64,000 bases of DNA from Acidimicrobiales bacterium. Its GTDB lineage: Bacteria > Actinomycetota > Acidimicrobiia > Acidimicrobiales > Aldehydirespiratoraceae. Both the position numbers and the translations under genes were made by a program. A model generated the notes under the pieces. The model was given only the letters and a program-made list of their open reading frames with translations. It was not told where the DNA came from and ran no database searches. Shown here piece by piece: positions 6,744-47,811 of this stretch (position 1 is its first letter; every line of letters starts with the position of its first letter). Where the stretch lies: the NCBI GenBank assembly GCA_965116485.1, contig OZ220692.1:1627152-1691151 (forward strand), in the 5' to 3' direction.

Positions 6744-6762
6744 ACCCTCGGAGATACACAAG

Positions 6763-8324: not shown

Positions 8325-8887
8325 ACGAGATGATTGAACTGGTCGTCGAGGACGCCGGTCAGAGCATGCAGAGTGCGGTGGACCACACTCGTAGAGAGTT
8401 CTCGAGCGTGCGCACCGGCCGTGCTTCTTCGAGCCTGTTGGAGCGCCTCACCGTGGAGGCCTACGGCGTCGAGATGCGAATCCAGGAGCTGGCGAGTTTC
8501 TCGGTTCCTGAAGCTCGTCTGCTGATCGTCACCCCTCATGACGTTGCGAACCTCAACGCGATCGAGAAGGCCATCACCAACAGCAACATGGGGCTGACTC
8601 CCAGCAACGACGGTCGCGTGATCCGCCTGGGGTTTCCGCCTCTGACCGAGGAACGGCGACGTGAGCTCTCCAAGGTTGTCGGCGCGATGGGCGAAGACGG
8701 CAAACAGAGAGTCAATGCAGTGCGCAGGGCGGCGCGCAAGAACCTCGACGAACTCGACAGTGACGGGGGAGTATCCAAAGACGAGATCCAGCGTGCGGAA
8801 GGAAGGCTTGACGCGCTCAAGAACGCGCATGTCGCTATGATTGATCAGGCGCAGGCCAACAAGCAGCAGGAGTTGATGGAGGTCTGA
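8321..8887 (+). CDS. frr: Ribosome recycling factor
   Basis: 188 aa with typical RRF sequence ([19 protein letters not shown] ...). The GTGA overlaps the pyrH stop. Confidence 0.95.
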
Positions 8888-22513: not shown

Positions 22514-22770
22514 CACTTCCGGTGGACCGTCCGGCCCCTTGGTCTGATGAACAAGTTGATGGCGCCGTTGGCGACCGAGCTGTAGCACTTTCGGTGGACC
22601 GTCCGGCCCCTTGGTCTGATGAACAAGTTGATGGCGCCGTTGGCGACCGAGCTGTAGCACTTTCGGTGGACCGTCCGGCCCCTTGGTCTGATGAACAAGT
22701 TGATGGTGCCGTTGGCGACCGAGTTGTAGCACGTTCGGTGGACCGGCAGGCCCCTTGGTCTGCCGGTCAG
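22511..22770. repeat. 72-bp tandem repeat, 3 full copies plus a partial fourth
   Basis: Units start at 22511, 22583, 22655 and 22727. Each begins with TAG in the frame of the upstream gene's stop codon. Confidence 0.95.
22741..22768. terminator. Bidirectional hairpin between convergent genes
   Basis: gaccggcag-gccccttggt-ctgccggtc forms a perfect 9-bp stem. It overlaps the stop of the minus-strand LLM gene. The upstream 72-bp units carry decayed versions of it. Confidence 0.5.
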
Positions 22771-23687
22771 GTTTGCAGTGGTAGCGCCAGTTGTGCGACC
22801 GACTCGAGTTCGCGGTGCCAGTCGGCTGGTTCGGTGAGCGGGAACAGCACGAATTTCGAGGCGCCGACTGAGATGTACTCGTTGAGCATGTCCGCGATCC
22901 GTTTGTGGGAGGTGGCAACGATCTCGCTCGGGTCGGTGTCGGGCATGCGGCTGGCGACCAACTGGCGTACAGCATCAGGAATGTCGGTTTCTCCGCGGTC
23001 CGCGGCGTCGGGCAGGTAACCGATGAGAACCCCGTAGTGCTCGGGGTCCATCGACCGGCCCGCGGTTCGGGCTGCGTCCTCGATGACGGTGATCGACTCT
23101 GCGACCAGCTCTGGCGTGGTGAACGAGCCGAGCCAGCCATCGGCGAGTCGGCCGGTACGGCGGAGTTCGGAGGGTGCATGACCGCCGAGCCACACCTCGA
23201 AGGGTTGCTGTATCGGTTTGGGGAGGACGCTTGCGCCGCGCAGCGTGAAGCGATCGCCGTCGTGGTCGACTTCGTCCTCGGTCCAGAGGCGGCGCATCAG
23301 CGGCAGCGCTTCGTTCAGCGACGGTGCGCGCTGCATCCGCTCGACGCCGAATGCCTGGTGCTCGGCGGTGTTGGCGATACCCAGTCCGAACGCAGGAAGG
23401 CAACGCCCGCCCGATATCACGTCGAGACTGGCCATCATCTTGGCCATCAGCACCGGGTTGCGGCCCGGCAGCACCGATACGGCGGGCCCGAATTTCAATC
23501 GGGTGCTGCGCCCCGCGACGAATCCCATGGCCACGATCGGATCGAGTTGTGGACTGTTCACACGCTCGGGAAACCACAAAGAGTCGAAGCCGAGCCGGTC
23601 CAGGTCGTCGACCACAGCTCCGAGACCGTCCGGTGTGCTCAGCAGTTTCGGTACCACCCCGATGCCGTAGCCGATTCGTATTTTCAT
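22767..23687 (-). CDS. LLM-class F420-dependent oxidoreductase
   Basis: MKIRIGYGIG...GFDSLWFPERV...RLKFGPAVSVLP...AFGLG, typical luciferase-like monooxygenase fold sequence. Confidence 0.8.
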   Translation of the reverse strand: MKIRIGYGIGVVPKLLSTPDGLGAVVDDLDRLGFDSLWFPERVNSPQLDPIVAMGFVAGRSTRLKFGPAVSVLPGRNPVLMAKMMASLDVISGGRCLPAFGLGIANTAEHQAFGVERMQRAPSLNEALPLMRRLWTEDEVDHDGDRFTLRGASVLPKPIQQPFEVWLGGHAPSELRRTGRLADGWLGSFTTPELVAESITVIEDAARTAGRSMDPEHYGVLIGYLPDAADRGETDIPDAVRQLVASRMPDTDPSEIVATSHKRIADMLNEYISVGASKFVLFPLTEPADWHRELESVAQLALPLQT

Positions 23688-26683: not shown

Positions 26684-29600
26684 ATGCAACGCCACGCCGA
26701 TTCCACAGCTTTTTGTCTGCGCTCACTAGCTACCAGGCTGGGTCGATCCCGCCGTGTCCTCAGGGGTGTGGCGCTGATGTTGATCTTCGCGTCAGCAGCG
26801 TACGGACTTACGGCCGTGCCCCCAGTGTCGATGCCACAGGCGGCAGCCGACGACCAAACCGAGACATATCAAGAACGGGTTGCGCCGTTCACTCAAACCG
26901 ACCGCGTCAGGGTAGCGCCGTTCACTGAGACTTACCAAGAGCGCGTCCCGCCATACACCCAAACCGTCCGCGTCAGGGTTGCGCCGTTCACCGAGTCCTA
27001 CCAGGTACGTGTCGCACCGTTCACCGAGAGCTATCGGGTGCGTGTCGCGCCGCTCACCGAAACCTATCGCGTCAGGGTTGCGCCGTTCACTCAAACCGAC
27101 CGCGTCAGGGTAGCGCCGTTCACTGAGACTTACCAAGAGCGCGTCCCGCCATACACCCAAACCGTCCGCGTCAGGGTTGCGCCGTTCACCGAGTCCTACC
27201 AGGTACGTGTCGCGCCGTTCACCGAGAGCTATCGCGTGCGTGTCGCGCCGTACACTCGAAGCGTGGCTGCATACAACTACGAAACGGTGTGTCCTCCCTG
27301 TCGTCAGGTTCGGGTAGCGCCGTTCACGCGAACCGTGGCTGTCTACAACTACGAAAACCGCACTCGAAATGTTTACAACTACGCGAACCGCACGCGAGCC
27401 GTCTTCAACTACGAAAACCGCACGCGAAATGTTTACAACTACGCGAACCGCACGCGAGCCGTCTTCAACTATGCGGACCGCACCCGAGATGTCTACAACT
27501 GGGAGAACCGAACGCGAGCTGTCTACAACTATGAGAATCGCTCCCGACCCGTTTGGAACTACGAAACCCGCACCCGATCAGTAGTCAACTACGAAAACCG
27601 CGTGCAAGACTTTTTTCACTATGCGGAACGCACGCGAGATGTCTTCAACTATGCGGAACGCACCCGAGATGTCTACAACTGGGAGACAAGGACTCGCAGT
27701 GTCTCCCACACTCATACCTGCCCCGCGGGCCAGCAGCTCGAGGGCCATGCCACCTGCGTACCAACGACCACCACGACGACGACAACGACGACAACGACTA
27801 CAGCACCACCACCCCCTAGACCTGTGGTTTCGATTACCGCTCACCCATCTGTCACCGAGGGAGCCCGCGCGTTGTTCACGGTCAGTGCTGCGCTTGCACC
27901 ATCAGAGACGCTCACGGTCACTGTGGCGGTGGCCGGAGGTGGTTACGCGTCGACTGGTACGCGTTCTGTGACATTGCAGGGTTCCTCATCATTCCCTCCC
28001 GGTCTTGCTACCGGCTTGCTGTCAGTGGCTACCGTCGATGACACGCTAGACGAGCCCGACGGAACGGTTACCGCAACAATCACAGCCGGCGCCGGCTACA
28101 CCGTTTCCGCCTCAGCGCGCTCGGCTGCCGTGACAGTCAAAGACAACGATTTGTCTGCTAGGGAGAGATGCGAGGCCGACGGAGGAACTTGGACTCCGCC
28201 GCTGGTTGACCCCTGCGTGAAACCTACGGTGTCGATCACTGGCCCCGCAGCGCCCGTCACAGAAGGCGCTGCGGTTCATTTCACTGTCACTGTTTCTCCA
28301 GCGCCTGCGTATTCGCTTGACGTTTCGGTGGCTGTGTCGTCTGTCGGCGGCTACGCGGCGTCTAATACTCGAACGGTGACGGTGCCCACCAGCGGAACCG
28401 CTGCTTTCACTGTCGCTACACTCAACGACACCGTGGATGAACCCGACGGTTCGGTAACTGCGACTATTGGAGCCAGTAGCCGCTACACTGGAGGCGGCGC
28501 CTCAGCAACCGTCGCGGTGCGAGACGACGACGCGACGCCTACTCAGGGGGATTGCCCCAGCGGCTACTACGAACTCGTCGATCCGTTGCCGACGGCCTGG
28601 ATTGATCTGTTCAACAGCGAAGTTAGTTTCGACCAAGCCACAGGGTTGCACCCTGAGCCCGTTGTGTGGGTGCCGCAGCGAAGTATCCCGCGGACACAAG
28701 ACCGGGGCTGTTACATGGCTCGTTTCGAAGTCACCGACGTGGGAGCGGTAAACGAGAACGAACTGAAAGAAGCGGCAACAGCCGCGTTAGTGGTCGGCTC
28801 ACAAGCATACAACGTGATCTGCGATCCCGTTGCAACGGTTACGGCAGAGTTGGGGCTCAGAAGAGCGGAGAAGTCTAAGGCTGTCGCCAGGATCGCTACG
28901 AGGCTGGGCACTACCAGCGCCAAAATCGTGCAGCGGGCTTCGATCGTGTTGAATGTTGTGTGTCTGCCAGCCACCATACAAGACGTGCTCAGCGTGTTGA
29001 GATGGATCGACGGGCTGTTCTCAACACCGCCGAAGCCGCTGTGCCCGGACCCTCCGACGGGGTTGGCTCTAGTCGGCACCGATGGGGCGATACAGGTGTC
29101 GTGGACACCCCCAACCAACGCGCCTGAAACAGAGGCCGACGAACACGGCGAGCACAGATACACTGTCTATTGGGGGGAAGGTGCGAGTTCGCTGGGTGCT
29201 CCGATCACGGGAATCAAGACCATCTGGCGTTCAGGGCCTCGAGCGGCGCACACAATTGCAGCAACAAATGGGCACGAATACTGGGTTCAAGTCTTCTGGG
29301 GCACGAAACTCGGATGCGAAGGGCAAGCACCAGTGGTAGAGGGAACAGTCACGCCAATCGCCGCTCCAAGCGCTCCACGCGGTCTGGTTCTCCTGCCTTC
29401 GGAAGGGCAGATACGGGTTTCATGGCAAGCAGCGCCGCATACCAGCGCGGCGCCCGTCGAGGGGTACCAAGTTTCGTGGAGCGACAGCGGAGGTCGTATC
29501 GACAGCGCTCGCGTGCTGCGAGGTGTCACAACGCACACGATCGGGGGCCTCACCAACGGGAGGACCTATCACGTCAGCGTGTCCGCGCACAATGTCTCGG

Positions 29601-30547
29601 GCCCCTCGGCTGCAGTATCCTACACAACAATCCCAATCACTGCTCCTAGTGCGCCGACCGGTCTGGTCCTTACACCTGCTGGAGGGCAGATACGGGTTTC
29701 GTGGCAGCCGGCGCCGCACAGCAGCGCGGCGCCCGTCGAGAGGTACAAAATTTCGTGGAGCGAAATCATCGGACCCGATGGCCAGGACGTTCACCTGCAT
29801 CAAGATGCCAGAGAGTATACGATCGAGGGCCTTGCCAACGGGAGGGTCTACAGCGTCGAAGTACACGCGTACAATAGGTTAGGCAACTCGACTGCCATTG
29901 GCGGCAGAGCAATCCCCAGGGTCGCTGCTCCTAGTGCGCCGACCGGTTTGGTCCTTACACCTGCTGGAGGGCAGATACGGGTTTCGTGGCAGCCGGCGCC
30001 GCACAGCAGCGCGGCGCCCGTCGAGGGATACGACATAACGTGGAGCGACAGCACAGGCCATATCGACAGCGCTAGCGTGCTGCGAGGTGTCACAACGCAC
30101 ACGATCGAGGGCCTTACCAACGGGAGCGCCTACAGCGTCGAAGTAAACGCGTACAATACCGATGATTTGGACCGTATATCATACTCGACTGTCATTAGCG
30201 GCACGGCAACCCCGGTCGTCGTTCCTAGTGCGCCGACCGGTATGGTCCTTACGCCTGCTGAAGGGCAGATGCGGGTTTCGTGGCAGCCAGCGCCGCACAG
30301 CAGCGAGGCGCCCGTCGAGGGATATTATATCAGCTGGTACACCGGCACCGGCGCAGGCGCACAACCCAGCGCTCTCACACCGCGAGGCCAAACGACATAC
30401 ACGATCACGGGCCTTACCAACGGGAGCGCCTACAGCGTCTTCGTGTACGCTGTCAATGCCGCAGGCAAATCGGCTCACATCTGGGGCAAAGCAACCCCTA
30501 GGGCAGCGACACCGACCGCCGCGACTCACCCCCGTCGCCTACGCTGA
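26684..30547 (+). CDS. Giant secreted repeat protein (novel 11-aa and 10-aa repeats, 2 Calx-beta-like modules, unknown Cys module, 5 FN3-like modules)
   Basis: ATG at 26684. RSRRVLRG plus a hydrophobic stretch resembles a Tat/Sec signal. Then about 13 x (xYxVRVAPFTE), about 12 x (VYNYENRTRx), and a poly-Thr/Pro linker. TVDDTLDEPDG and TLNDTVDEPDG are Calx-beta signatures. Repeated APSAPTGLVLTPAGGQIRVSWQP marks the FN3 starts. Confidence 0.8.
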   Translation: MQRHADSTAFCLRSLATRLGRSRRVLRGVALMLIFASAAYGLTAVPPVSMPQAAADDQTETYQERVAPFTQTDRVRVAPFTETYQERVPPYTQTVRVRVAPFTESYQVRVAPFTESYRVRVAPLTETYRVRVAPFTQTDRVRVAPFTETYQERVPPYTQTVRVRVAPFTESYQVRVAPFTESYRVRVAPYTRSVAAYNYETVCPPCRQVRVAPFTRTVAVYNYENRTRNVYNYANRTRAVFNYENRTRNVYNYANRTRAVFNYADRTRDVYNWENRTRAVYNYENRSRPVWNYETRTRSVVNYENRVQDFFHYAERTRDVFNYAERTRDVYNWETRTRSVSHTHTCPAGQQLEGHATCVPTTTTTTTTTTTTTAPPPPRPVVSITAHPSVTEGARALFTVSAALAPSETLTVTVAVAGGGYASTGTRSVTLQGSSSFPPGLATGLLSVATVDDTLDEPDGTVTATITAGAGYTVSASARSAAVTVKDNDLSARERCEADGGTWTPPLVDPCVKPTVSITGPAAPVTEGAAVHFTVTVSPAPAYSLDVSVAVSSVGGYAASNTRTVTVPTSGTAAFTVATLNDTVDEPDGSVTATIGASSRYTGGGASATVAVRDDDATPTQGDCPSGYYELVDPLPTAWIDLFNSEVSFDQATGLHPEPVVWVPQRSIPRTQDRGCYMARFEVTDVGAVNENELKEAATAALVVGSQAYNVICDPVATVTAELGLRRAEKSKAVARIATRLGTTSAKIVQRASIVLNVVCLPATIQDVLSVLRWIDGLFSTPPKPLCPDPPTGLALVGTDGAIQVSWTPPTNAPETEADEHGEHRYTVYWGEGASSLGAPITGIKTIWRSGPRAAHTIAATNGHEYWVQVFWGTKLGCEGQAPVVEGTVTPIAAPSAPRGLVLLPSEGQIRVSWQAAPHTSAAPVEGYQVSWSDSGGRIDSARVLRGVTTHTIGGLTNGRTYHVSVSAHNVSGPSAAVSYTTIPITAPSAPTGLVLTPAGGQIRVSWQPAPHSSAAPVERYKISWSEIIGPDGQDVHLHQDAREYTIEGLANGRVYSVEVHAYNRLGNSTAIGGRAIPRVAAPSAPTGLVLTPAGGQIRVSWQPAPHSSAAPVEGYDITWSDSTGHIDSASVLRGVTTHTIEGLTNGSAYSVEVNAYNTDDLDRISYSTVISGTATPVVVPSAPTGMVLTPAEGQMRVSWQPAPHSSEAPVEGYYISWYTGTGAGAQPSALTPRGQTTYTITGLTNGSAYSVFVYAVNAAGKSAHIWGKATPRAATPTAATHPRRLR
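26864..27258 (+). repeat. 33-bp (11-codon) coding repeat array, including a 198-bp near-perfect tandem duplication
   Basis: TYQERVAPFTQ / TDRVRVAPFTE / SYQVRVAPFTE and similar. The DNA at 26884-27053 recurs at 27082-27251. Confidence 0.9.
27259..27706 (+). repeat. 30-bp (10-codon) coding repeat array
   Basis: VYNYENRTRN VYNYANRTRA VFNYENRTRN ... VYNWETRTRS. Confidence 0.9.
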
Positions 30548-36765: not shown

Positions 36766-37716
36766 ATGACCACGAAGATCCCATCGGATACACGTACCGA
36801 CGCGTCGGAACTTGTTGTCGGTGACACACCGCAGGCGGATTGTCTGCGAGCGTGTGAGACAGGCACAAACCTAAAACAGAACCGAACGCTGCACCGTCGC
36901 AGCGGCATCGGTTCAGCGCTAGCGTGCGGCGGCGTGGGCCAAGCGATCTTTGTGCCTGACGGTGAATGGCTGATACCTCAACCGAACGCCTGCGGGCCTT
37001 GGTTCCCGGGTGTGCAGCACGGAGGATCGATCGCGGGACTGTTCGCCAGAGCGATCGAACGGGTCGCATCCGATACTGCGATGTTCACGACTCGGATCAG
37101 CATCGACATGAGCCGTCGGGTCCCGATGGCGCCGACGAAGGTCGAGACCGAAGTCGTGAGGAACGGTCGTCGAGTGCAGGCCATCGAAGCGCGCTACGTC
37201 GTTTCCGACGAGGTGGTAGCCCGCGCCACGGCGACCCGAATCCGCGTTGACGAAGGCCTCTCGTCAAACAAGATCGGGGTCGGCTTCCGCCCCGAAGACC
37301 TACCCCCGATGCAACCCGAGGAAGTACCGGACATGGAGGACCTGTTCGTCGGCTTCGACTTTGTCCGGAACTTCGTCATGCGCCGAGAACAAACGCCGTC
37401 AGGTCAAGCGATGACATGGGCCCGTCTCGACCGCCAGTTTGTGGCGGGCGAACCCAACACCCCGTTGATCCAGCTTGCGGCTGTTGCCGACATGATCCCG
37501 AGCGCCAATTCGTTGCTGGACTACGGCGAGTACTTGTCGGTCAACCCGGATCTCAACATTGCCGTTTCGAGACTGCCGAACAGTGACTGGGTTGGTTCGT
37601 TGGCGGTTGTCCGGAACGCCCCGGGCGGTGTCGGCCAGACAGACGCGCAACTGTTCGACGAGCAGGGAGTGATCGGCAGGTCGATCAAATCGTTATTGAT
37701 TGATCACCGAAAATAA
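36766..37716 (+). CDS. Thioesterase-like (acyl-CoA thioesterase double hot-dog) family protein
   Basis: GPWFPGVQHGGSIAGLFARA ... VVRNGRRVQAIEARY ... The real start may be the GTG at 36934. Confidence 0.65.
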   Translation: MTTKIPSDTRTDASELVVGDTPQADCLRACETGTNLKQNRTLHRRSGIGSALACGGVGQAIFVPDGEWLIPQPNACGPWFPGVQHGGSIAGLFARAIERVASDTAMFTTRISIDMSRRVPMAPTKVETEVVRNGRRVQAIEARYVVSDEVVARATATRIRVDEGLSSNKIGVGFRPEDLPPMQPEEVPDMEDLFVGFDFVRNFVMRREQTPSGQAMTWARLDRQFVAGEPNTPLIQLAAVADMIPSANSLLDYGEYLSVNPDLNIAVSRLPNSDWVGSLAVVRNAPGGVGQTDAQLFDEQGVIGRSIKSLLIDHRK

Positions 37717-37718
37717 CC

Positions 37719-39240
37719 ATGTCTCGCGGTGACCCCCGCCCCAACGTCGTGCTGATCAACTGCGACGACCTCGGCTACGGCGACCTCGGATGCTACGGCT
37801 CGAAAGTGCACGACACGCCGGCGATCGACGCATTGGCTGCCGAGGGGATGAGGCTCACCGACTTCTACATGGGGTCGGCCGTGTGCACGCCGTCGCGGGG
37901 AGCGATGTTGACCGGCTGCTACCCGCCGCGTATCGGCTTCGATGACTTCGACGGCATGCATGTGCTGTTCCCGGGAATGGCCGGAGGACTCAACCCCAGC
38001 GAGAAGACCATCGCCCGGCTCCTCAAAGACGCGGGTTACACCACGCAGATCGTCGGCAAGTGGCATTGCGGAGACCAGCCTGACTTCTTGCCGACTCGTC
38101 ACGGTTTCGACGGCTGGTACGGGCTTCCATACAGCAACGACATGGGGATCCAAGCGTCGGCGTTCACCGAAGAGGAGATCACGAGAATCAGAGACGAACT
38201 CGGAATCGAACTGCCCTTCGATTCGCATCCTCCGCTCCCGCTCATGCTAGACGAAGAGGTGATCGAAGCGCAGCCGGACCAGGCCGCGCTCACCGAGCGT
38301 TACCTGCAGGAATCGATCAGGTTCATCAGAAGCAACCGTGACAAGCCGTTCTTGCTGTATTTCGCGCACATGTACGTACACCTGCCGCTGTATGTGCAAC
38401 CGCGGTTCGCGGCAGAGTCACGCAATGGTCCCTACGGGGCAGCGGTTCGTTGCATCGATTGGGCGCTTGCGGTACTGATGGCTGAGCTGACGGCTCTGGG
38501 TTTGAGCGACGACACGATCGTCATCTTCACCAGCGACAACGGCGCGTTGTGCCGACCCGGGGAAGGCAGCAACGCGCCGTTGCGGGACGTCAAGGGCACG
38601 ACCTGGGAAGGCGGGATACGGGTTCCCTGCATCGTGCGTTGGCCGGGCGAGGTGCCGGCAGGTACAACATCGGACGCGCTCACGACCGCTATGGACCGCC
38701 CTCTCAAGCCCTCAAGCTCTTCTTCAACGTCAAGGTACAACATCGGACGCGCTCACGACCGCTATGGACCTGTACCCGACGATCGCAGGCTGGTGCGGCG
38801 CGGATGTACCGACCGACAGAACGATCGACGGTTGCGATATCGATGCGGTGCTTCGGGGCAGGGCCGCAGAATCGCCCAGGGAGACGTTCCTGTACTACAG
38901 CGGCTCGACTCTGGAAGCCGTCCGAATGGGCAAATGGAAGCTTCATCTGGTCAAGGGCAGCAGATGGCGCGGAGGCGACAGCGAAGAGATGCCCCAACTC
39001 TTTGATCTGGCCTCCGACGTCGGCGAGACCAGCAATGTGCTGGCCGACCATCCCGATGTGGTCGCACAGATCATGGTCCATGTCGATGCCGCAAGGGCAG
39101 ACCTGGGGGACACGGCCGCTGGAGTCGAAGGGTCTGGGCGCCGCCCGCAGGGACGAGTCGACAATCCTGTGACGCTGACCACCTTCGACCCCGACCATCC
39201 CTACTACATGGCCGAATACGATCTCGCTGACAGGGGCTGA
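37719..39240 (+). pseudogene. Cys-type sulfatase disrupted by a 73-bp insertion
   Basis: NCDDLGYGDLGCYG and CTPSRGAML (formylglycine motif). The frame shifts by +1 at the insertion; removing 73 bp restores a 482-aa ORF. Confidence 0.8.
38661..38770. repeat. 37-bp direct repeat flanking a 36-bp filler (the sulfatase insertion)
   Basis: ggtacaacatcggacgcgctcacgaccgctatggacc occurs at 38661-38697 and 38734-38770. The filler is gccctctcaagccctcaagctcttcttcaacgtcaa. Confidence 0.9.
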
Positions 39241-39251
39241 GGCAAGCAGCG

Positions 39252-40886
39252 CTAACGCAGTCTCACCGGGGTGCTGACTTCGGAGTAGAAGTCGTTGCCC
39301 TTGTCGTCGATGACGATGAAGGCGGGGAAGTTCTCGACCTCGATCTTCCAGATCGCTTCCATGCCGAGTTCCGGGTACTCGAGGACTTCCACGGCGCGGA
39401 TTGAGTCCTGAGCCAGGCGAGCCGCGGCTCCGCCGATGGAGCCCAGGTAGAAGCCGCCGTGGCGGGCGCACGCTTCGGTCACCTCTCGGGACCGGTTGCC
39501 TTTGGCCAGCATCACCATCGAGCCTCCTGCGGCCTGGAACTCGTCGACGTAGGAGTCCATGCGTCCCGCGGTCGTGGGTCCGAACGAACCTGAGGCGTAC
39601 CCGGTCGGCGTTTTGGCCGGTCCCGCGTAGTAGATCGCGTGGTCGCGGAGGTACTGCGGCATCGGCTCGCCGCGGCTGAGCCTTTCGGAGATCTTGGCGT
39701 GGGCGATGTCACGGCCCACGACGAGCGTGCCGTTGAGAGACAGCCGTGTCTTCACCGGATGCTTGCTCAGTTGGTTGCGGATCTCGTCCATGGGTTGGTT
39801 GAGATCAACGGTGACGACCTCGCTGGACAGGTCGTCGGTGGCGGCGTCGGGCAGGAAACGAGCCGGATCGGTTTCGAGCTGTTCGAGAAAGATCCCCTCA
39901 GCGGTGATCTTGGCCTTGGCCTGACGGTCGGCGGAGCAGCTGACGGCTATCCCCACCGGGTTCGAGGCGCCGTGGCGGGGGAGGCGGATAACCCGCACGT
40001 CGTGGCAGAAGTACTTGCCTCCGAATTGAGCGCCGATGCCGAACTCGCGGGTTTGTTGGAGCACCTTGTTCTCCCACTCGATGTCGCGGTAGCCGTGGCC
40101 GGTGTCGGCGCTGCCTGACGTTGGCAGCGTGTCGAGGTAGTGGGCGGAGGCCAGCTTGGCGACCTTGAGGTTGAACTCCGCTGAGGTGCCCCCGACAACC
40201 AGAGCAAGGTGATACGGAGGGCAAGCCGAGGTGCCGACCGCACGCAGCGACTCGTCAAGGAAGTCCAGCAGCGACTCGGTGTTCAACAGGGCCTTCGTCT
40301 TCTGGAACAGGAAGGACTTGTTGGCCGACCCCCCGCCCTTGGCCATGAACAGGAACTCGTAGCTGCTGCCAGGCTTGGAGTAGAGCTCGATCTGTGCCGG
40401 CAGGTTGTTTTGAGTGTTGGACTCTTCAAACATCGACACCGGCGCCAGTTGCGAATAGCGCAGGTTGGTTTCGGTGAAGGTGTCGAACACTCCTGCCGAT
40501 ATCGCCTCGGCGTCGTCTCCGTAGGTGACGACCTGGTCGCCCTTCTTGCCCATCACGATGGCGGTGCCGGTGTCCTGGCACATGGGGAGCACTCCTGCGG
40601 CGGCGATGTTGGCGTTGAGCAGCAGTTCGTGGGCCACGAAGACGTCGTTACCGGAGGCCTCGGGGTCTTTCAGGATGCCGGCCAGCTGTTCGAGGTGCTC
40701 GGTGCGCAGGTAGTGGGCGATGTCGTTCATCGCGGCGCGGGTGAGCAGCCGGATCGCCGACGGTTCAACTTTGACGAATGTGCGCCCGTCGGCATCGAAA
40801 GTGGAGACTCCCTCAGTCGAGATCAGGCGGTACTCGGTGGTGTCGACTCCGAGCGGCAACAGATCGGAGTAGGCGAACTCGGTCAT
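39252..40886 (-). CDS. fumA: Class I (Fe-S) fumarate hydratase
   Basis: 544 aa with [19 protein letters not shown] and the C-terminal beta-type domain. Confidence 0.88.
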
Positions 40887-40925
40887 GGCTCCACGCTACT
40901 CGCCGGGACTGGCCGACGATGCTCA

Positions 40926-41195
40926 CTATCCGCAAACCCGTCTGACCTCAGCTTCGGTGATGATGACTCGTGCTCTGAGCTCGATCAACTCGTCGTGCGC
41001 ACCATGCTCATGTCCTTCGACGTGCGCCGTGTTGTGCGTTTGCAGCGCTTCGCCCCAGTCGCTCTCGGCGTAGGCTTGTGCCTCGGCGACGTCAGCGCAT
41101 TCTGCGGAGCCTCCTTTAGCGGAGCATGCGCTCAGGAGGACGACCAGCGACATTGTCGCTCCGATATTGCGCTCTGGGTTCGTTCGAATTTTCAT
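40926..41195 (-). CDS. Small His-rich lipoprotein
   Basis: MKIRTNPERNIGATMSLVVLLSAC lipobox; the mature part contains HVEGHEHGAHDE. Confidence 0.55.
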   Translation of the reverse strand: MKIRTNPERNIGATMSLVVLLSACSAKGGSAECADVAEAQAYAESDWGEALQTHNTAHVEGHEHGAHDELIELRARVIITEAEVRRVCG

Positions 41196-41239
41196 ACTTC
41201 TTGCCTCGATGTTTTGCTGTCCATATGTTGATATTGGTT

Positions 41240-41290
41240 GTGCGGCAGGGCCGAAGCAGCTTGCTACGGTTACGGACGGCCCTGCCGCAC
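41240..41290. repeat. Perfect 14-bp inverted repeat with a 23-nt loop
   Basis: gtgcggcagggccg ... cggccctgccgcac lies between the lipoprotein gene and the 2-TM gene. It is duplicated at 46394-46444. Confidence 0.85.
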
Positions 41291-41343
41291 GGCTTTGTGT
41301 GCGCCAGCCTGTGGTCTCCCGCAAGAGGGGCTAGAGTAAACTC

Positions 41344-41586
41344 ATGACTGATGCGCACGGAGACGAGAAAACCCGCCTCCAGCGGATTTGGCTGTCGAAG
41401 ACGACCCTTGTGATGACAAGGAGGACAGCATTGATGCAGGGGTTTTTCGCCTTTGTGTTTTGGCTCCATTGGGATATGCCTCTCGCATCTGTGTTTCTGT
41501 TTGCCGTCTCACTCGTGTCCGCCGGCATGTCGGTCCATTCCTGGCGAAAGCGCCGTGAAGTACGGCTGGAAAGGCTGGCCAGCTGA
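41344..41586 (+). CDS. Small 2-TM membrane protein, allele D1
   Basis: 80 aa: charged N-terminus (DEKTRLQRIW), two hydrophobic helices, basic tail (WRKRRE). Confidence 0.65.
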   Translation: MTDAHGDEKTRLQRIWLSKTTLVMTRRTALMQGFFAFVFWLHWDMPLASVFLFAVSLVSAGMSVHSWRKRREVRLERLAS

Positions 41587-41595
41587 TGCTCTCGT

Positions 41596-41994
41596 CTAGT
41601 GGCCTTCGGTGGACTGGATCCCTGTGGCACCGCAGTAGAGTCCGGCAGCGGGATTGACCCAGCCGGCGATCCCGCAGCCTGCCCACCAGAGCCATTGGTT
41701 GTGGGTGTGGGGGCGTTCGTACCTGGGTCCGCAACGCCTGTAGCGTTCGTAACCCCAGATTGGGACGCCGTATCTGTATTCTCCCTCGCCGTTGCCGAAA
41801 TCGTGCCAGTACATCTGGTTGGGGTCCCATCGGTAACCGATGATCGTGTAGTTCGTTGATTGCACCCAGGTGCAGTCTTGCGCGTAGGCCACATGAGCGG
41901 ACGCGGGTTCGGTGTCGGTGACCGTCACGACGGTCAATGTGCTGGCCAGCACGGCCAGCGCCAAGATACCAACAGCAGCTGAACGGGTTCTCAT
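41596..41994 (-). CDS. Secreted Cys/Trp/Tyr-rich small protein, allele D1
   Basis: Signal peptide MRTRSAAVGILALAVLAS...PASA. The ~100-aa mature part has 4 Cys and a Gly-rich hydrophobic C-terminus WLWWAGCGIAGWVNPAAGLYCG. Confidence 0.65.
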   Translation of the reverse strand: MRTRSAAVGILALAVLASTLTVVTVTDTEPASAHVAYAQDCTWVQSTNYTIIGYRWDPNQMYWHDFGNGEGEYRYGVPIWGYERYRRCGPRYERPHTHNQWLWWAGCGIAGWVNPAAGLYCGATGIQSTEGH

Positions 41995-42589
41995 AAGGGG
42001 TGTCCTTTGATTCCAGTTAGCAAGCTGCGTGCGGTAGGGTAGCTGAATTCGCCTCCAGCCGCAACAATTGATTGCTTCCACTACCCCGCGCCAAGTGCCG
42101 GGGTCCAATCGCCGGCTTTGGTGCTCACGAGTTCATCATGTCGCGCCAGCGAAAATCTGGCCGTCGGCTCACACCGAGCCGTCGATGGGGGTGCCCGAAC
42201 ATGGTGCGGGGTCGCGGTGCTCGATTGCTGAGACGTTTCGCTGGTTGCCCGTTGGTTTGGGGCCGGTGGGGTCGGGTGCGTTTGTGGGTGTCGGCTGTCT
42301 CGGTGGTGTCTATCGGAGCAGGCGAGGCGGGTGCGGCCGATAGACGACAACCACCTGGATGTAGCGTCAGTCGACCCGCTGACATCGCGCTGGGGCCTCT
42401 GCGGTGAATGCTTCAGCCGCCTGTCATCGGGTGCCTGTCCGATTCAATCAGTTTCCGCTGGTGAGTCGTGGTTGCTGCAGGTGTCGAGATGTCTCGAGCG
42501 GATCGAAGTGTGCCGGGTTCCAGCCAGGGGGGAGCCATTCGACGAGTTCGCTGTGGCGGGGGTGGCCCTTTTCGGCTTGTTCAGTCACC

Positions 42590-42962
42590 GACCGTGTCTC
42601 ACAACCCGAGTGCGGGCACACCCAACGCCGTTTGTGCCACACCAGCCGCACCAGCCTGAACACCGGCAAATCCACCAACACCACCCGCCGCTCACCGCTG
42701 CACCACAACCGTCCCCCACAGCCCGAACACGGCAGCCTCCCAGCGTGTCTGCGCACATGCACCCCCAACGGTCTGCCGGCCCCGTCGGCGACGCCGAGCA
42801 CCTCAACATCGCCTGATCCCACCAACAACTCGCACATGCGTACAGGGTCGCGTTCCACACCGATCCTCCAAGTTCGGGGGTTGACAGCCCCGATTCTGGA
42901 GGATCCCCCGCCCACACCCGCGGACACCCACAATCCCTACCCCCCCTCACTTCCGAAGAACC
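42590..42962 (-). mobile_element. ISL3 right-end fragment (transposase N-terminal zinc-finger part plus IR)
   Basis: MCELLVGSGDVEVLGV...CSGCGG...WVCPHSGC, with the end ...cttccgaagaacc. Confidence 0.7.
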
Positions 42963-43014: not shown

Positions 43015-44310
43015 TTATGGCTTCGAGGCGCAACTCCCAGGATGTCCTCTCCTGCGGACGCAATGAGCTTTCGCTCGTGGCATGTACTTCTGGCATCTAG
43101 GAGTTGGGGGGTGCGTGGAAGGCGAGGGAACGCTCCCTTGGATGACGTCAGCGTGCAGCCGCTCGGTTTCCAAAAGCTGCGAGATCGTGCTCTTTGGGAG
43201 CATCTCTGTGAGTGAAACTGTGCGGTCGTCGCCCACTGTCGCATATCCAGAAGCGACCAACCGGCGCAGAGACCTCGAAAGCGACTTCGCCGGTCGTTGA
43301 AGATGGCTGGCAACGGAGCGCAGCGAAGCTGTCCCGCCAGACAAAGCGATGACTTCTAGGTAGTCCTGGTCTTGTTCGGACAGCGCGAACCACGCGGGGA
43401 CGCTGATGCGCTCCAAGAAGGTTGCCTCGGCTGCTTCAACAGCGAGATGAACGACGCTGAGATCAATCCTGTTGCGTGAAGCGTCCGCGATCTCCCAAGC
43501 GTTGTACCCGATGTGCTGGAGCTTGTAAGGCAGCGAACCGCAGTGTGATGCCGCGTATCGGAGAGCGTCGTTGTCGATGGCTCCGCCTGCGTCCGTGATC
43601 GTGCTTCGGAGTCCGATCAGAGCGTCTGTGCTGGTGAGCGCTGGCATGTCGAACTGCGCGCAACGATGGAAGAAGGTGAGATGGTTGTCCTCAAGCAGCG
43701 TGGTCTTCATCGAAGGAAGCCCTGCACCTAGAAAGCCCAAAGGCAGTTCCGACTTCTTCGTGATGTGCTGAATGTCCGCAGCGAAGCGTCGCAATTCGTC
43801 TCGGTCGCCGCTGTGCATCTCGTCGAGAGTCACCAGCACGGAGGCACCGTTCTCTTGGGCGTGCGTGGCGAGCGCGGTGAGTTGTCGACGAGCATCCCAA
43901 TCCGGGCGAATCCTGTCGATCACTGTCCTAGTCCACCCGAACCCCGCAGCCGTGAGACCCGTGGTCTTTGACGCGGATCGTTCTTCTAAATCTAGGCCGC
44001 GCTCCGTCTCAAGCGAGTAGACCGCCTGAGAGATGCGTCCAGGCAGCCCCTTGTTCACAGAGTCGAGCTTCAAGACGAGCCAACCGTCCTGAGCGGCCCG
44101 GCCTTCTATCTCTTGAAGCACCACCGTCTTGCCTGAGCCGCTTCGTCCTATCAACAGCGACGTGTAGCGCTCGGAGTGGGGGCCGGTGGCTAGACCCCCG
44201 CCGATGCTGTCGAGCAGGTCTTTGCGGCCCACCAGACTGCGCGGCCTCACGCCGAAGCCTGGAGAGAAGGGATTTTCGGATGGTGTACCGAGACTACTGA
44301 AGTCCGACAT
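43015..44310 (-). CDS. Orphan P-loop NTPase (AAA/ORC-like ATPase with a winged-helix-like C-terminus)
   Basis: Walker A GRSGSGKT, Walker B-like LVTLDEMH, and a long helical C-terminal part. The ATG at 44310 is preferred over the track start. Confidence 0.65.
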   Translation of the reverse strand: MSDFSSLGTPSENPFSPGFGVRPRSLVGRKDLLDSIGGGLATGPHSERYTSLLIGRSGSGKTVVLQEIEGRAAQDGWLVLKLDSVNKGLPGRISQAVYSLETERGLDLEERSASKTTGLTAAGFGWTRTVIDRIRPDWDARRQLTALATHAQENGASVLVTLDEMHSGDRDELRRFAADIQHITKKSELPLGFLGAGLPSMKTTLLEDNHLTFFHRCAQFDMPALTSTDALIGLRSTITDAGGAIDNDALRYAASHCGSLPYKLQHIGYNAWEIADASRNRIDLSVVHLAVEAAEATFLERISVPAWFALSEQDQDYLEVIALSGGTASLRSVASHLQRPAKSLSRSLRRLVASGYATVGDDRTVSLTEMLPKSTISQLLETERLHADVIQGSVPSPSTHPPTPRCQKYMPRAKAHCVRRRGHPGSCASKP

Positions 44311-44334
44311 GGTGCCAGTGTAGTCGTTGATGCA

Positions 44335-44394
44335 GGTGACCGGTGGTTGGTGTTGGTGACCGGTGATTGATGTAGATGACTGGTGGTCGCACAA
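44335..44394. repeat. Three 20-bp direct repeats upstream of the ATPase gene
   Basis: ggtgaccggtggttggtgtt / ggtgaccggtgattgatgta / gatgactggtggtcgcacaa. Confidence 0.7.
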
Positions 44395-44405
44395 CACCGC
44401 CGCAT

Positions 44406-44948
44406 CGTGTGCAGGCCATCGAAGCGCGTTACGTGGTTTCCGAAGAGGTGGCGGCCCGCGCTACGGCGACCCGGATCCGCGTCGACGGAGATCTCTCGTC
44501 GACCAGGATCGGGGTGGGCTCCCGTCCCGAAGGCCAGCCGCCGATGCAGCCAGAAGAAGTGCCGCTCGTGGAGGGTCTGTTCGCCGGCTTCGACTTTGTC
44601 CGGAACTTTGTGATGCGCCGAGAACAGACGGCGTCAGGTGGAGCGATGACCTGGGCGCGCCTCGATCGCGAGTTCGTGGAAGGCGAGCCCAACACCCCGT
44701 TGATCCTGCTTGCGGCTGTCGCCGACATGATCCCGAGCGCCAATTCGGTGTTGGACTACAACGAGTACCTGTCTGTGAACGCCGATCTCAACATTGCTGT
44801 TTCGAGGCTGCCGGAGAGCGGCTGGGTCGGTTCGTTGGCGGTTGTGAGGACCGCCCCGGGCGGTGTCGGCCAGACCGACGCGCAACTCTATGACGAACAC
44901 GGTGTGATCGGCAGGTCGATCAAGTCGCTGTTGATCGACCACCGCTGA
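44406..44948 (+). pseudogene. 5'-truncated divergent copy of the thioesterase-like gene
   Basis: RVQAIEARYVVSEEVAARATATRIRVDGD...LLIDHR is colinear with the C-terminal ~180 aa of 36766-37716. Confidence 0.7.
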
Positions 44949-44987
44949 CGAATACGATCTCGCTGACAGGGGCTGAGGCAAGCAGCG

Positions 44988-46040
44988 CTAACGCAGTCTC
45001 ACCGGGGTGCTGACTTCGGAGTAGAAGTCGTTGCCCTTGTCGTCGATGACGATGAAGGCGGGGAAGTTCTCGACCTCGATCTTCCAGATCGCTTCCATGC
45101 CGAGTTCCGGGTACTCGAGGACTTCCACGGCGCGGATTGAGTCCTGAGCCAGGCGAGCCGCGGCTCCGCCGATGGAGCCCAGGTAGAAGCCGCCGTGGCG
45201 GGCGCACGCTTCGGTCACCTCTCGGGACCGGTTGCCTTTGGCCAGCATCACCATCGAGCCTCCTGCGGCCTGGAACTCGTCGACGTAGGAGTCCATGCGT
45301 CCCGCGGTCGTGGGTCCGAACGAACCTGAGGCGTACCCGGTCGGCGTTTTGGCCGGTCCCGCGTAGTAGATCGCGTGGTCGCGGAGGTACTGCGGCATCG
45401 GCTCGCCGCGGCTGAGCCTTTCGGAGATCTTGGCGTGGGCGATGTCACGGCCCACGACGAGCGTGCCGTTGAGAGACAGCCGTGTCTTCACCGGATGCTT
45501 GCTCAGTTGGTTGCGGATCTCGTCCATGGGTTGGTTGAGATCAACGGTGACGACCTCGCTGGACAGGTCGTCGGTGGCGGCGTCGGGCAGGAAACGAGCC
45601 GGATCGGTTTCGAGCTGTTCGAGAAAGATCCCCTCAGCGGTGATCTTGGCCTTGGCCTGACGGTCGGCGGAGCAGCTGACGGCTATCCCCACCGGGTTCG
45701 AGGCGCCGTGGCGGGGGAGGCGGATAACCCGCACGTCGTGGCAGAAGTACTTGCCTCCGAATTGAGCGCCGATGCCGAACTCGCGGGTTTGTTGGAGCAC
45801 CTTGTTCTCCCACTCGATGTCGCGGTAGCCGTGGCCGGTGTCGGCGCTGCCTGACGTTGGCAGCGTGTCGAGGTAGTGGGCGGAGGCCAGCTTGGCGACC
45901 TTGAGGTTGAACTCCGCTGAGGTGCCCCCGACAACCAGAGCAAGGTGATACGGAGGGCAAGCCGAGGTGCCGACCGCACGCAGCGACTCATCAAGGAATT
46001 CCAGCAGCGATTCGGTGTTCAACTAGGCGAACTCGGTCAT
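44988..46040 (-). pseudogene. fumA copy with a 582-bp in-frame internal deletion that creates a TAG
   Basis: ATG ACC GAG TTC GCC TAG TTG AAC... The MTEFA start remnant is joined to codons for NTESLL...; the downstream 344 codons match fumA. Confidence 0.8.
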
Positions 46041-46079
46041 GGCTCCACGCTACTCGCCGGGACTGGCCGACGATGCTCA

Positions 46080-46349
46080 CTATCCGCAAACCCGTCTGAC
46101 CTCAGCTTCGGTGATGATGACTCGTGCTCTGAGCTCGATCAACTCGTCGTGCGCACCATGCTCATGTCCTTCGACGTGCGCCGTGTTGTGCGTTTGCAGC
46201 GCTTCGCCCCAGTCGCTCTCGGCGTAGGCTTGTGCCTCGGCGACGTCAGCGCATTCTGCGGAGCCTCCTTTAGCGGAGCATGCGCTCAGGAGGACGACCA
46301 GCAACATTGTCGCTCCGATATTGCGCTCTGGGTTCGTTCGAATTTTCAT
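46080..46349 (-). CDS. Small His-rich lipoprotein, copy 2
   Basis: One aa difference (S to L in the signal peptide) from 40926-41195. Confidence 0.5.
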   Translation of the reverse strand: MKIRTNPERNIGATMLLVVLLSACSAKGGSAECADVAEAQAYAESDWGEALQTHNTAHVEGHEHGAHDELIELRARVIITEAEVRRVCG

Positions 46350-46497
46350 ACTTCTTGCCTCGATGTTTTGCTGTCCATATGTTGATATTGGTTGTGCGGC
46401 AGGGCCGAAGCAGCTTGCTACGGTTACGGACGGCCCTGCCGCACGGCTTTGTGTGCGCCAGCCTGTGATCTCCCGCAAGAGGGGCTAGAGTAAACTC

Positions 46498-46740
46498 ATG
46501 ACTGGTTCGCACAGCGACGAGAAAACCCGGCTCCAGCGGTTTTGGCTGTCAAAGGCGACTTTGGTGCTGACGAGGAGGGCTGCAATCATGGATGGGTTTT
46601 TTGCGGTTGTATTTTGGCTCCATTGGGATATGCCTCTTGCATCGGTTCTTCTGTTCGCTCTTTCGATCGTCTCCGCTGGCATGTCGGTCCATTCCTGGCG
46701 AAAGCGCCGCGAGGAACGGTCGGAAGTGCTCGCTAGTTGA
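46498..46740 (+). CDS. Small 2-TM membrane protein, allele D2
   Basis: 80 aa, 16 aa differences from allele D1. Confidence 0.65.
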   Translation: MTGSHSDEKTRLQRFWLSKATLVLTRRAAIMDGFFAVVFWLHWDMPLASVLLFALSIVSAGMSVHSWRKRREERSEVLAS

Positions 46741-46749
46741 TGGTCTTGG

Positions 46750-47148
46750 CTAGTGGCCTTCCGTGGACTGGATCCCTGTGGCACCGCAGTAGAGTCCGAC
46801 AGCAGGACTGACGCGGCCAATGACCCCGCAAGCTCCAAACCAGAGCCATTGATTGTGGGTGTGGGGGCGTTCGTACCTGGGTCCGCAACGCCTGTAGCGT
46901 TCGTAACCCCAGATTGGGACGCCGTATCTGTATTCTCCCTCGCCGTTGCCGAAATCGTGCCAGTACATCTGGTTGGGGTCCCATCGGTAACCGATGATCG
47001 TGTAGTTCGTTGATTGCACCCAGGTGCAGTCTTGCGCGTAGGCCACATGGGCGGACGCAGGTTCGGTGTCGGTGACCGTCACGACGGTCAATGTGCTGGC
47101 CAGCACGGCCAGCGTCAAGATACCAACAGCAGCTGAACGGGTTCTCAT
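46750..47148 (-). CDS. Secreted Cys/Trp/Tyr-rich small protein, allele D2
   Basis: Identical to D1 except one signal-peptide residue and the C-terminal block WLWFGACGVIGRVSPAVGLYCG. Confidence 0.65.
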   Translation of the reverse strand: MRTRSAAVGILTLAVLASTLTVVTVTDTEPASAHVAYAQDCTWVQSTNYTIIGYRWDPNQMYWHDFGNGEGEYRYGVPIWGYERYRRCGPRYERPHTHNQWLWFGACGVIGRVSPAVGLYCGATGIQSTEGH

Positions 47149-47322
47149 AAGGGGTGTCCTTTGATTCCAGTTAGCAAGCTGCGTGCGGTAGGGTAGCTGA
47201 ATTCGCCTCCAGCCGCAACAATTGATTGCTTCCACTACCCCGCGCCAAGTGCCGGGGTCCAATCGCCGGCTTTGGTGCTCACCAGATCATCATGTCGCGC
47301 CAGCGAAAATCTGGCCGTCGGC

Positions 47323-47811
47323 TCACACCGAGCCGTCGATGGGGGTGCCCGAATATGGTGCGGGGTCGCCTTCGGCGGGGATCTGTGGCCGGGACCAGTG
47401 AGCCAGATCAGCGATCGCTTCGGCAACGTCGCGCCAGGTGTCGGGATCCCAGCCTTCGGCCTTGGCGGTCACGGCGCCGTCCTGTCGGACCAGCAGGATA
47501 CAGGGGGCGGACTCGACGCCCAGACCCATGGCGATGGCGCGGGTCGGGTCTGCGAAGGTCAACACTTCTTCGGCGTACGGCCCGAGGAAGCGCTTGGCGT
47601 CGTCGGGGGAGCAGGTGAGAATCCAGCAGGGACGACAGTCAGCTTCTCGGAACCCCTCCAGGATTCTCTTGGAAGTGTCGAGAATCCAGGCGCTCTCATG
47701 GGTGAAAGGGTCGAGCACCACGCATGCGAGCGGGAAGGTCGTGAGCCAATCGGAAAGGGGACGGCTTTCGCCGTTGAGAGGATCGAGTTCGAGCTCGGGT
47801 GTGGTTATCAC
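47323..47811 (-). CDS. Thioredoxin-fold protein with a CRPC motif
   Basis: 162 aa; FREADCRPCWIL and the strand/helix pattern fit a TlpA/AhpC-like fold. Assignment is by eye only. Confidence 0.5.
   Translation of the reverse strand: MITTPELELDPLNGESRPLSDWLTTFPLACVVLDPFTHESAWILDTSKRILEGFREADCRPCWILTCSPDDAKRFLGPYAEEVLTFADPTRAIAMGLGVESAPCILLVRQDGAVTAKAEGWDPDTWRDVAEAIADLAHWSRPQIPAEGDPAPYSGTPIDGSV

Follow-up and report, generated by a model that had tools for sequence, protein, structure and literature searches.

Why should a block of 348 bp stay strongly diverged inside two chromosomal copies that are otherwise almost identical? The question is raised by a segmental duplication in a stretch of 64,000 nucleotides (nt) from an uncultivated Acidimicrobiales bacterium (GenBank assembly GCA_965116485.1, contig OZ220692.1), which we call the window and which is part of a 3.55-Mb contig. 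The block spans a gene for a small protein with two predicted transmembrane segments (2-TM) and the coding sequence for the C-terminal tail of a secreted protein, whose gene converges on it from the opposite strand; a lipoprotein gene lies beyond the 2-TM start. We consider it probable that old paralogs underwent partial gene conversion and that two islands escaped it, one being a polymorphic, recombination-exchanged module, tail plus 2-TM gene, of an orphan envelope cassette. This account of origin is compatible with every functional reading weighed below, and the degrees of confidence that we attach to the various readings overlap and do not add up to certainty.

Comparing the two duplicate copies, D1 and D2, by self-BLASTN and direct alignment, we found three aligned pieces: 37170-37709 against 44405-44944 (thioesterase gene, 85.2% identity), 39213-40290 against 44949-46027 (fumA, 99.6%) and 40870-42215 in D1 against 46024-47369 in D2 (94.7%), the last running for 1,346 bp without gaps at an offset of 5154 throughout. 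The features on which the argument turns are the following, with silent (synonymous) divergence written as dS.

41351-41698, unstranded: diverged patch, D1, with 64 mismatches in 348 bp, 81.6% identity to D2.
46505-46852, unstranded: D2 counterpart of the patch, also found in the independent contig L027.
39213-40290, unstranded: homogenised fumA segment, D1, 99.6% identical to 44949-46027.
37170-37709, plus strand: second unconverted island, in the D1 thioesterase gene, 85% identity to 44405-44944, dS 0.52.
44405-44944, plus strand: D2 counterpart of the thioesterase island, in a gene truncated at its 5' end.

The patch holds 64 of the 72 mismatches of the third piece, the other eight being spread over 998 bp (99.2% identity), and the binomial probability of such clustering is 2.9e-29. 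Its first mismatch, at 41351, falls in codon 3 of the 2-TM open reading frame; its last, at 41698, is in the convergent gene, 103 bp from the first stop-codon base. These positions agree with a first-pass annotation of the same DNA, which had seen divergence begin just past the 2-TM start and end about 100 bp into the secreted-protein gene. Clustering of this kind, with abrupt changes from near-identical to diverged sequence, is what a gene-conversion mosaic shows.

Nei-Gojobori estimates for D1 against D2 give the 2-TM gene a dS of 0.60, a non-synonymous divergence (dN) of 0.125 and a dN/dS ratio (omega) of 0.21. The thioesterase island has a dS of 0.52 and an omega of 0.15, and the tail (last 34 codons) a dS of 0.27, a dN of 0.15 and an omega of 0.54. 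For the N-terminal part of the secreted protein (its N-domain) dS is 0.03, and the flanks together (fumA, the lipoprotein gene and the N-domain) are homogenised to a dS of 0-0.03. Silent divergence in the islands is therefore far above that of the flanks and similar between the two (0.60 and 0.52 against 0.03), and the 2-TM value lies within the range found between different genomes (0.44-0.68). The first-pass annotation had read the patch as two old, functional alleles in homogenised flanks, a view that these values bear out; it had not listed the thioesterase island, with which the patch ceases to be unique. The two islands are thus equally old, one of them lying in a gene unrelated to the cassette, and the surrounding tracts were homogenised recently. 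This is the pattern that gene conversion leaves between old paralogs.

The homogenisation is mechanistic rather than functional, because it extends to a dead gene. D2 fumA (44988-46040, against 39252-40886 in D1) has lost ~583 nt (D1 40291-40869), the junction showing a 4-nt overlap, and is out of frame with its own start codon, which makes it a pseudogene; what remains is still 99.6% identical to the intact D1 gene. The contents of the copies differ further. In D1 the thioesterase gene (4HBT_3C domain) is full-length, the sulfatase is split between two frames and fumA, which encodes a class I fumarate hydratase, is intact, followed by the three small genes (lipoprotein, 2-TM and secreted protein). 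D2 has only the 3' part of the thioesterase gene and the deleted fumA, together with the same three small genes, all intact.

These contexts bear on the trivial explanation, that the assembler joined two strain alleles and the tandem duplication does not exist. In its favour, the sequence comes from a metagenome-assembled genome (MAG), and the exact D1 2-TM sequence occurs nowhere else in the protein collection. Yet we consider an artefact highly improbable, because the contig is 3.55 Mb long and because L027 (Logan SRR6049383, a short-read contig of 1330 nt from another run) independently recovers the D2 allele and flanking sequence at 99.7% and breaks off at the borders of the repeat, which is how a true repeat should behave. 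Moreover, the two contexts cannot be collapsed into one (intact fumA and sulfatase in D1, the fumA deletion and truncated thioesterase in D2, an ISL3 remnant and an ATPase gene between them), and similar tandem copies occur in other genomes.

Is the 2-TM gene itself real? Its two alleles are:

41344-41586, plus strand: 2-TM gene, D1 allele, 80 residues, predicted N-in/C-in hairpin with a very short outer loop, WDMP.
46498-46740, plus strand: 2-TM gene, D2 allele, 80 residues, 80% amino-acid identity to D1.

They differ at 37 codons, 21 synonymously and 16 non-synonymously, exactly as the first-pass annotation had counted, with 15, 4 and 26 differences at the three codon positions. The frame is a real coding one, because it has the most synonymous differences among the six frames across the patch. 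Changes in the predicted helices are conservative exchanges among F, L, V and I. Omega lies between 0.17 and 0.38 in all comparisons of orthologous alleles, the older ones involving orphan copies included (0.26-0.27); higher values are confined to L030a against L031a, which are closely related (0.67), and L030a against L030b, which are paralogous (0.72). (Related loci carry L numbers throughout.) 2-TM identity follows N-domain identity (r 0.73-0.96), and the gene is about as variable as the lipoprotein. On this evidence the 2-TM gene is real, constrained and simply fast-evolving. It probably gives rise to a leaderless mRNA from its own promoter, since a TANNNT box (TAGAGT, TACAAT, TATACT or TACACT) is fixed 6-7 nt before the start codon in the window (41325-41346) and in L001, L005, L007, L014, L015 and L021. 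The best family match, to PspM at E 0.23 in Pfam (E up to 10) and NCBIfam, is unusable as evidence.

The convergent gene is represented as follows.

41596-41994, minus strand: secreted-protein gene, D1, 132-residue precursor with a predicted signal peptide (ASA|H) and a mature part of 99 residues with 4 Cys.
46750-47148, minus strand: secreted-protein gene, D2 copy.
41632-41694, minus strand: hypervariable tail of the D1 secreted protein, residues 101-121, including the Cys107-Cys121 loop.
46786-46848, minus strand: hypervariable tail of the D2 secreted protein.

Between D1 and D2 the C-terminal block reads WWAGCGIAGWVNPAAG against WFGACGVIGRVSPAVG, with 8 of 16 residues different, and elsewhere only A12T, in the signal peptide, separates the two proteins; both figures had been noted by the first-pass annotation. 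The contrast between the two parts of the protein recurs among six close alleles, where the pooled proportion of non-synonymous differences (pN) is 0.22 for the tail (residues 101-121), with an omega of 0.47, against 0.025 for the N-domain, with an omega of 0.05. In pairs involving L021 the dS of the tail reaches 1.1-3.0, against 0.34-0.63 for the N-domain. The N-domain, rich in Trp and Tyr, shows strong conservation, and long beta-hairpins are predicted for it (AlphaFold2 confidence score, pLDDT, ~83); the C-terminal ...GH is conserved as well, and the loop between the conserved Cys residues is 13, 17 or ~33 residues long. The mature protein measures 11.5 kDa, with an isoelectric point (pI) of 6.6-7.1, and its tail is mildly hydrophobic (grand average of hydropathy, GRAVY, 0.3-0.5), the loop tip bearing a charged residue in some alleles.

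We rejected the tail as a transmembrane anchor, the inter-Cys loop being 13 residues long with a maximal 15-residue hydropathy of 0.77. A likeness to the chaplin motif (C-G...NPA.G...C) is not supported, no Pfam match being found at E<=10. For the mature protein no Pfam family was matched at E<=10, the profile of the lactococcin 972 family of Sec-dependent bacteriocins included. The best match to the tail, TIGR04450 ('putative immunity/bacteriocin fusion'), has an E value of 0.69 and is unusable as evidence.

What sets the borders of the patch? A sliding-identity comparison between genomes, as the first-pass annotation had proposed, places them at transitions from conserved to variable sequence. 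The patch is the stretch exactly between two conserved blocks, the spacer at 41200-41290 (81-97% identity between genomes, mostly >=90%) and the N-domain coding region at 41710-41980 (75-97%, mostly 85-97%). Among close alleles the 2-TM gene is 65-93% identical (mostly 70-88%) and the tail 63-93%. The same borders reappear in another pair of genomes: L030 (on a 5.2-Mb contig) and L031 (2.0 Mb) agree at 92-100% of positions across the N-domain, the spacer and the lipoprotein gene, whereas in the block of tail and 2-TM gene (L030 7310-7700) their identity falls to 40-72% (mostly 40-65%).

Tail and 2-TM gene are thus replaced together in D1/D2 and in L030/L031, in keeping with the co-variation that the first-pass annotation had expected of a cognate pair. 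Among the six close alleles this expectation fails, the identities of the two segments being uncorrelated (r = -0.18 for the whole 2-TM protein, 0.07 for its core). The outcome that the annotation had named as refuting its view, independent variation of the two segments in further alleles, is thus observed in part. L001 and L005b share 19 of 21 tail residues (90%) against 67% identity between their 2-TM proteins; for L021 and L005b the 2-TM proteins agree at 83% (97-98% at the nucleotide level in the 3' half of the gene) and the tails at 57%, with a recombination breakpoint between the two genes. All that separates these two segments is the ~45-bp conserved C-terminal coding end, and their joint inheritance needs no selection, because they are physically adjacent.

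It is possible that the patch is a purely neutral remnant, in which fast-evolving and weakly constrained sequences happen to be neighbours and any unconverted or imported tract ends at the same conserved blocks, recombination needing such anchors, with no functional link and no balancing selection. The second island, in an unrelated gene and of equal dS, speaks for this, as do the position of the borders, the agreement of the 2-TM gene with the phylogeny and its lipoprotein-like variability, a tail omega of 0.47 and not above 1, and the homogenisation of the D2 fumA pseudogene regardless of function. Less readily explained are the L030/L031 block, whose divergence within such similar flanks implies that very old allele classes persist or were imported, and the tail dS of the L021 pairs, far above that of the N-domain. 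Duplicated pairs and orphan 2-TM genes have also been repeatedly kept under purifying selection, and the convergent pairing is family-wide.

These last points rest on the distribution of the cassette. Homologues are confined to a few MAGs of Acidimicrobiaceae/Acidimicrobiia: a profile search of 1.84 billion representatives returned 8 matches only, of which two large ones, P0016 and P0017, are FN3-repeat proteins matched via repeated low-complexity stretches and were judged spurious, and a scan of JGI metagenomes gave two loci, both already in our panel. None of the three proteins (secreted, 2-TM and lipoprotein) matches a Pfam (E up to 10) or NCBIfam family. The order secreted protein, opposite-strand 2-TM gene, lipoprotein and usually fumA is conserved, and at the most distant loci a convergent small 2-TM open reading frame still follows the secreted-protein gene, sequence similarity having gone. 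The locus is chromosomal, syntenic between argC and fumA, and without export, processing or regulatory genes; the setting of D2, beside argC and a thioredoxin-like gene of 162 codons, is the ancestral one in relatives. L005, L012, L015, L030 and L031 have second pairs or orphan 2-TM genes, and at least four lineages have tandem divergent pairs. The orphans in L015, L030 and L031 are under purifying selection (omega 0.27), and decayed secreted-protein genes stand beside intact 2-TM genes in L031 (an in-frame stop) and L015b (two frameshifts), so that orphan immunity-like genes and decayed effector-like genes are found together, as in polymorphic-toxin loci. In L012 the first 193 nt of the tandem secreted-protein paralogs (6687-7070 and 8000-8383) are the same (100% identity) and a sharp divergence follows, which is another gene-conversion border in the secreted-protein gene, in a different lineage. 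Judged by these comparisons, the three-gene envelope cassette is an orphan, lineage-restricted one, its gene content being the new part.

Such a distribution brings back the cognate pair proposed by the first-pass annotation. In its full form, the proposal would make the secreted protein a bacteriocin-like effector that leaves the cell by the Sec route and uses its Cys-bounded loop on or in the membrane, with the 2-TM protein as its allele-specific immunity protein and the lipoprotein as a release or accessory factor. The old functional alleles of that proposal stand; the cognate toxin and immunity pair is not established, and we retain it as a tentative, minority hypothesis. It would account for the convergent pairing kept even in distant members, the replacement of tail and 2-TM gene as one block on two occasions, the tandem divergent pairs, the constrained orphans, the decayed effector-like genes, and the survival of the small genes in D2 while fumA and the thioesterase gene decay. 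Against it stand the missing correlation among the six close alleles, the discordant pairs and the breakpoint between the genes, the low omega of the 2-TM gene (0.2-0.35) with its conservative helix changes, and the near lack of an external loop in the 2-TM protein. The N-domain omega of 0.05 does not favour it, nor does a mature protein that is neither cationic nor strongly hydrophobic, a syntenic chromosomal locus lacking export, processing and regulatory genes, or the failure to find similarity to bacteriocin or immunity families in Pfam, NCBIfam or PDB beyond the unusable TIGR04450 match. Finally, with a thioesterase island of the same age, special selection is not needed.

Known systems offer analogues for this hypothesis. 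In ionophoric colicin operons the colicin gene is accompanied by an opposite-strand membrane immunity gene, with a small lysis lipoprotein gene last (PMC9517006). The window and all related loci share with pore-forming colicin operons this gene order and orientation, with a probable promoter of its own for the 2-TM gene and the lipoprotein on the effector strand, and the variable determinant likewise lies at the C-terminus of the effector candidate. There is no similarity in sequence or fold: no homology to colicin pore-forming domains or colicin immunity proteins was found in Pfam, NCBIfam or, at E<1, among PDB folds. The candidate has 99 residues and a Sec signal, whereas colicins have 40-70 kDa and none; the immunity candidate has 2 transmembrane segments and colicin immunity proteins have 3-4. 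Furthermore, the locus here is chromosomal and syntenic, the mature lipoprotein is a His-rich protein of 66 residues, and no SOS control is evident. The actinobacterial host is, we assume, monoderm.

Class IIa bacteriocins combine a conserved, beta-rich N-terminal part with a more variable, hydrophobic and disulfide-constrained C-terminal part (PMC2634753, PMC3546714), a division that the secreted protein echoes. It differs from them in being larger and near-neutral, in having FGNGEGEYRYG instead of YGNGV and a Sec-type signal instead of a double-glycine leader, and in matching no Pfam family. Pediocin immunity proteins are soluble four-helix proteins (PMC1904221), unlike the 2-TM protein.

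Another parallel for the pairing is IdsD/IdsE of Proteus mirabilis, in which variable subdomains in or near membrane-spanning segments set allele-restricted binding (PMC4471559). Here too the genes are adjacent, the variable parts lie in or near membrane segments and one partner is a 2-TM protein; yet the Ids proteins are much larger and not homologous, IdsD is delivered by a type VI system, and co-variation was negative among our six alleles. Polymorphic toxin loci with orphan immunity genes (PMC4436062) likewise have a conserved N-terminal part and a variable tip beside a small linked gene, with tandem extras, orphans and decayed effectors, but the tip here is only ~21 residues long, no dedicated secretion-system markers are present, and Pfam and NCBIfam recognised no toxin domain in the variable part. 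Pore-forming colicin operons, class IIa bacteriocins and IdsD/IdsE are the closest analogues in logic, which is not to say that the cassette is a member of any of them.

Variation in loop length (13, 17 or ~33 residues) between a strongly conserved N-domain and the conserved C-terminal ...GH, together with the mild hydrophobicity of the tail, its charged tip in some alleles and its ability to be exchanged alone, would also suit an envelope protein with an exposed disulfide-bounded loop on which phages, the host (sponge) or recognition exert diversifying pressure, with the 2-TM protein as an allele-linked accessory or docking factor. Type IV pilin alleles with linked accessory genes, and again the IdsD/IdsE pair, would be the analogues. 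This seems unlikely to us, as the 2-TM protein has almost no extracytoplasmic loop through which to make contact and no homology to adhesins, pilins or identity proteins was found.

We return to partial conversion between old paralogs, the reading that we prefer. The comparisons show D1 and D2 to be old paralogous copies of a chromosomal segment with the thioesterase, fumA, lipoprotein, 2-TM and secreted-protein genes, separated by a dS of ~0.5-0.6, a depth equal to that found between different genomes of the clade. Recent conversion has homogenised the stretches conserved in the family, from fumA through the lipoprotein gene and an intergenic hairpin, plus the N-domain of the secreted protein. 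Two islands have escaped, one in the thioesterase gene and one in the 2-TM gene with the Cys-bounded hypervariable loop, and the blocks at the edges of the second, which every family member conserves, serve as recombination anchors. Tail and 2-TM gene would then form a polymorphic, exchanged module, of which deeply diverged allele classes persist in the population, the alleles moving through the anchors together, or the tail alone. Joint action of the secreted protein and the convergent 2-TM protein at the membrane surface is most likely, and their diversity is probably maintained by frequency-dependent selection of some form, for which strain competition or recognition and phage or host pressure are candidates. 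We stress that the evidence does not show selection for a matched toxin and immunity pair.

With other mosaic paralogs formed by partial conversion, the duplication shares sharp breakpoints, silent divergence in the islands ~20-fold above that of the flanks, homogenisation independent of function and two islands of equal age. What differs is that one island here is also exchanged between genomes and repeatedly duplicated, so that selection may protect or favour it.

Several points weigh against this account. With one duplication, a conversion that halted at the variable block by chance and conversions that were purged by selection are inseparable. Divergence alone does not block conversion, because the poorly conserved N-terminal coding part of the lipoprotein was homogenised. 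An alternative is that the duplication is recent and the patch came in later from a foreign source; this would require a second import in the thioesterase gene. The panel is a small sample of ~10 distinct alleles, and the AlphaFold2 model of the secreted protein is mediocre (pLDDT 67); Foldseek found no PDB match to it at E<1.

Seen in its boldest form, the cassette would represent a previously undescribed family of Sec-exported polymorphic effectors, apparently of sponge-associated Acidimicrobiia, in which a disulfide-bounded loop of 13-33 residues sets specificity, a convergently encoded 2-TM immunity or identity protein recognises the loop on or within the membrane and the His-rich lipoprotein is a third component. 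We hold this to be doubtful. If true, it would be a miniature, colicin-like three-gene architecture of independent origin in a monoderm lineage, and tandem duplication with partial conversion would have placed two specificities in one genome. An unconverted island in homogenised duplicates is in itself a known evolutionary outcome; what the tail and 2-TM block adds is that it behaves as a swappable module, which is duplicated, replaced between genomes and kept as orphans. Should matched specificities be encoded here, the block would be a new and compact system of strain-level competition or recognition in unculturable symbiont populations, and a clean natural example of a specificity determinant at which conversion is kept out. 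Otherwise the locus is a caution that co-located divergence in adjacent genes can come from the need for conserved recombination anchors.

The remaining elements of the cassette lie in the homogenised tract to the left of the 2-TM gene.

40926-41195, minus strand: lipoprotein gene, D1, 89 residues, lipobox LLSAC, His-rich mature part, Cys pair.
46080-46349, minus strand: lipoprotein gene, D2, 1 residue different.
41240-41290, unstranded: 13-bp inverted repeat, D1, GTGCGGCAGGGCC-N25-GGCCCTGCCGCAC, between the lipoprotein and 2-TM starts.
46394-46444, unstranded: the same inverted repeat in D2.

The sole difference between the lipoproteins, which the first-pass annotation had counted, is S15L, in the signal peptide. 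The inverted repeat, found nowhere else in the window, is also present in L001, L005, L007, L011-L015, L021, L025 and L026. In 10 of 12 distinct loci, even those where the proteins are only ~50% identical, its arms do not vary, the exceptions being L007 and L015 with one uncompensated mismatch each, and it is predicted to fold as RNA at -41.7 kcal/mol (z -2.9). Conserved throughout the family, it makes up the anchor on the left side of the patch. It could be an operator, a stabiliser of the 5' untranslated region or a processing site; an Rfam scan (by E value) of 40800-42400, the repeat included, returned nothing, and neither did a scan for promoter and terminator consensus sequences. A promoter-like pair to the left of the hairpin, TTGCCT-17-TATGTT, is better read as the reverse complement of the lipoprotein ribosome-binding region.

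Histidines recur in the cassette. In the secreted protein His34, directly after the predicted ASA cleavage motif, is nearly invariant (>=90% of sequences), and PH[TS]H (residues 96-98) and the terminal GH are conserved; the lipoprotein has the His-rich stretch HNTAHVEGHEHGAHDE at residues ~52-67. Together they raise a possible metal-binding theme, including the idea of a copper 'histidine brace'. The neighbouring 162-residue protein (47323-47811, minus strand) has a CRPC motif and weak similarity to Redoxin/thioredoxin (E 0.05-0.1), and is conserved beside the cassette, next to the four-Cys secreted protein, in L005, L021, L030 and L031.

Beyond the cassette, the D1 sulfatase at 37719-39240 consists of two overlapping open reading frames of 428 (Sulfatase domain) and 158 (Sulfatase_C) residues and is probably frameshifted. 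The gene is intact in L030 and L031, which also have the order fumA-sulfatase-thioesterase; we accordingly rejected the D1 sulfatase as an insertion, this order being ancestral in part of the clade. Between the copies lie an ISL3-type transposase remnant (42448-42933), called from its translation alone, and a gene for an AAA/STAND-like ATPase of 460 residues (43015-44397). L031 carries a partial duplication of the lipoprotein-fumA region mediated by an insertion sequence. Upstream in the window are tandem and dispersed repeat families at 22507-22773, 26858-27718, 29358-30347 and 30253-30829/34727-35302, with periods of 72, 33, 30 and ~285 nt, plus one duplicate at a spacing of 4.47 kb.

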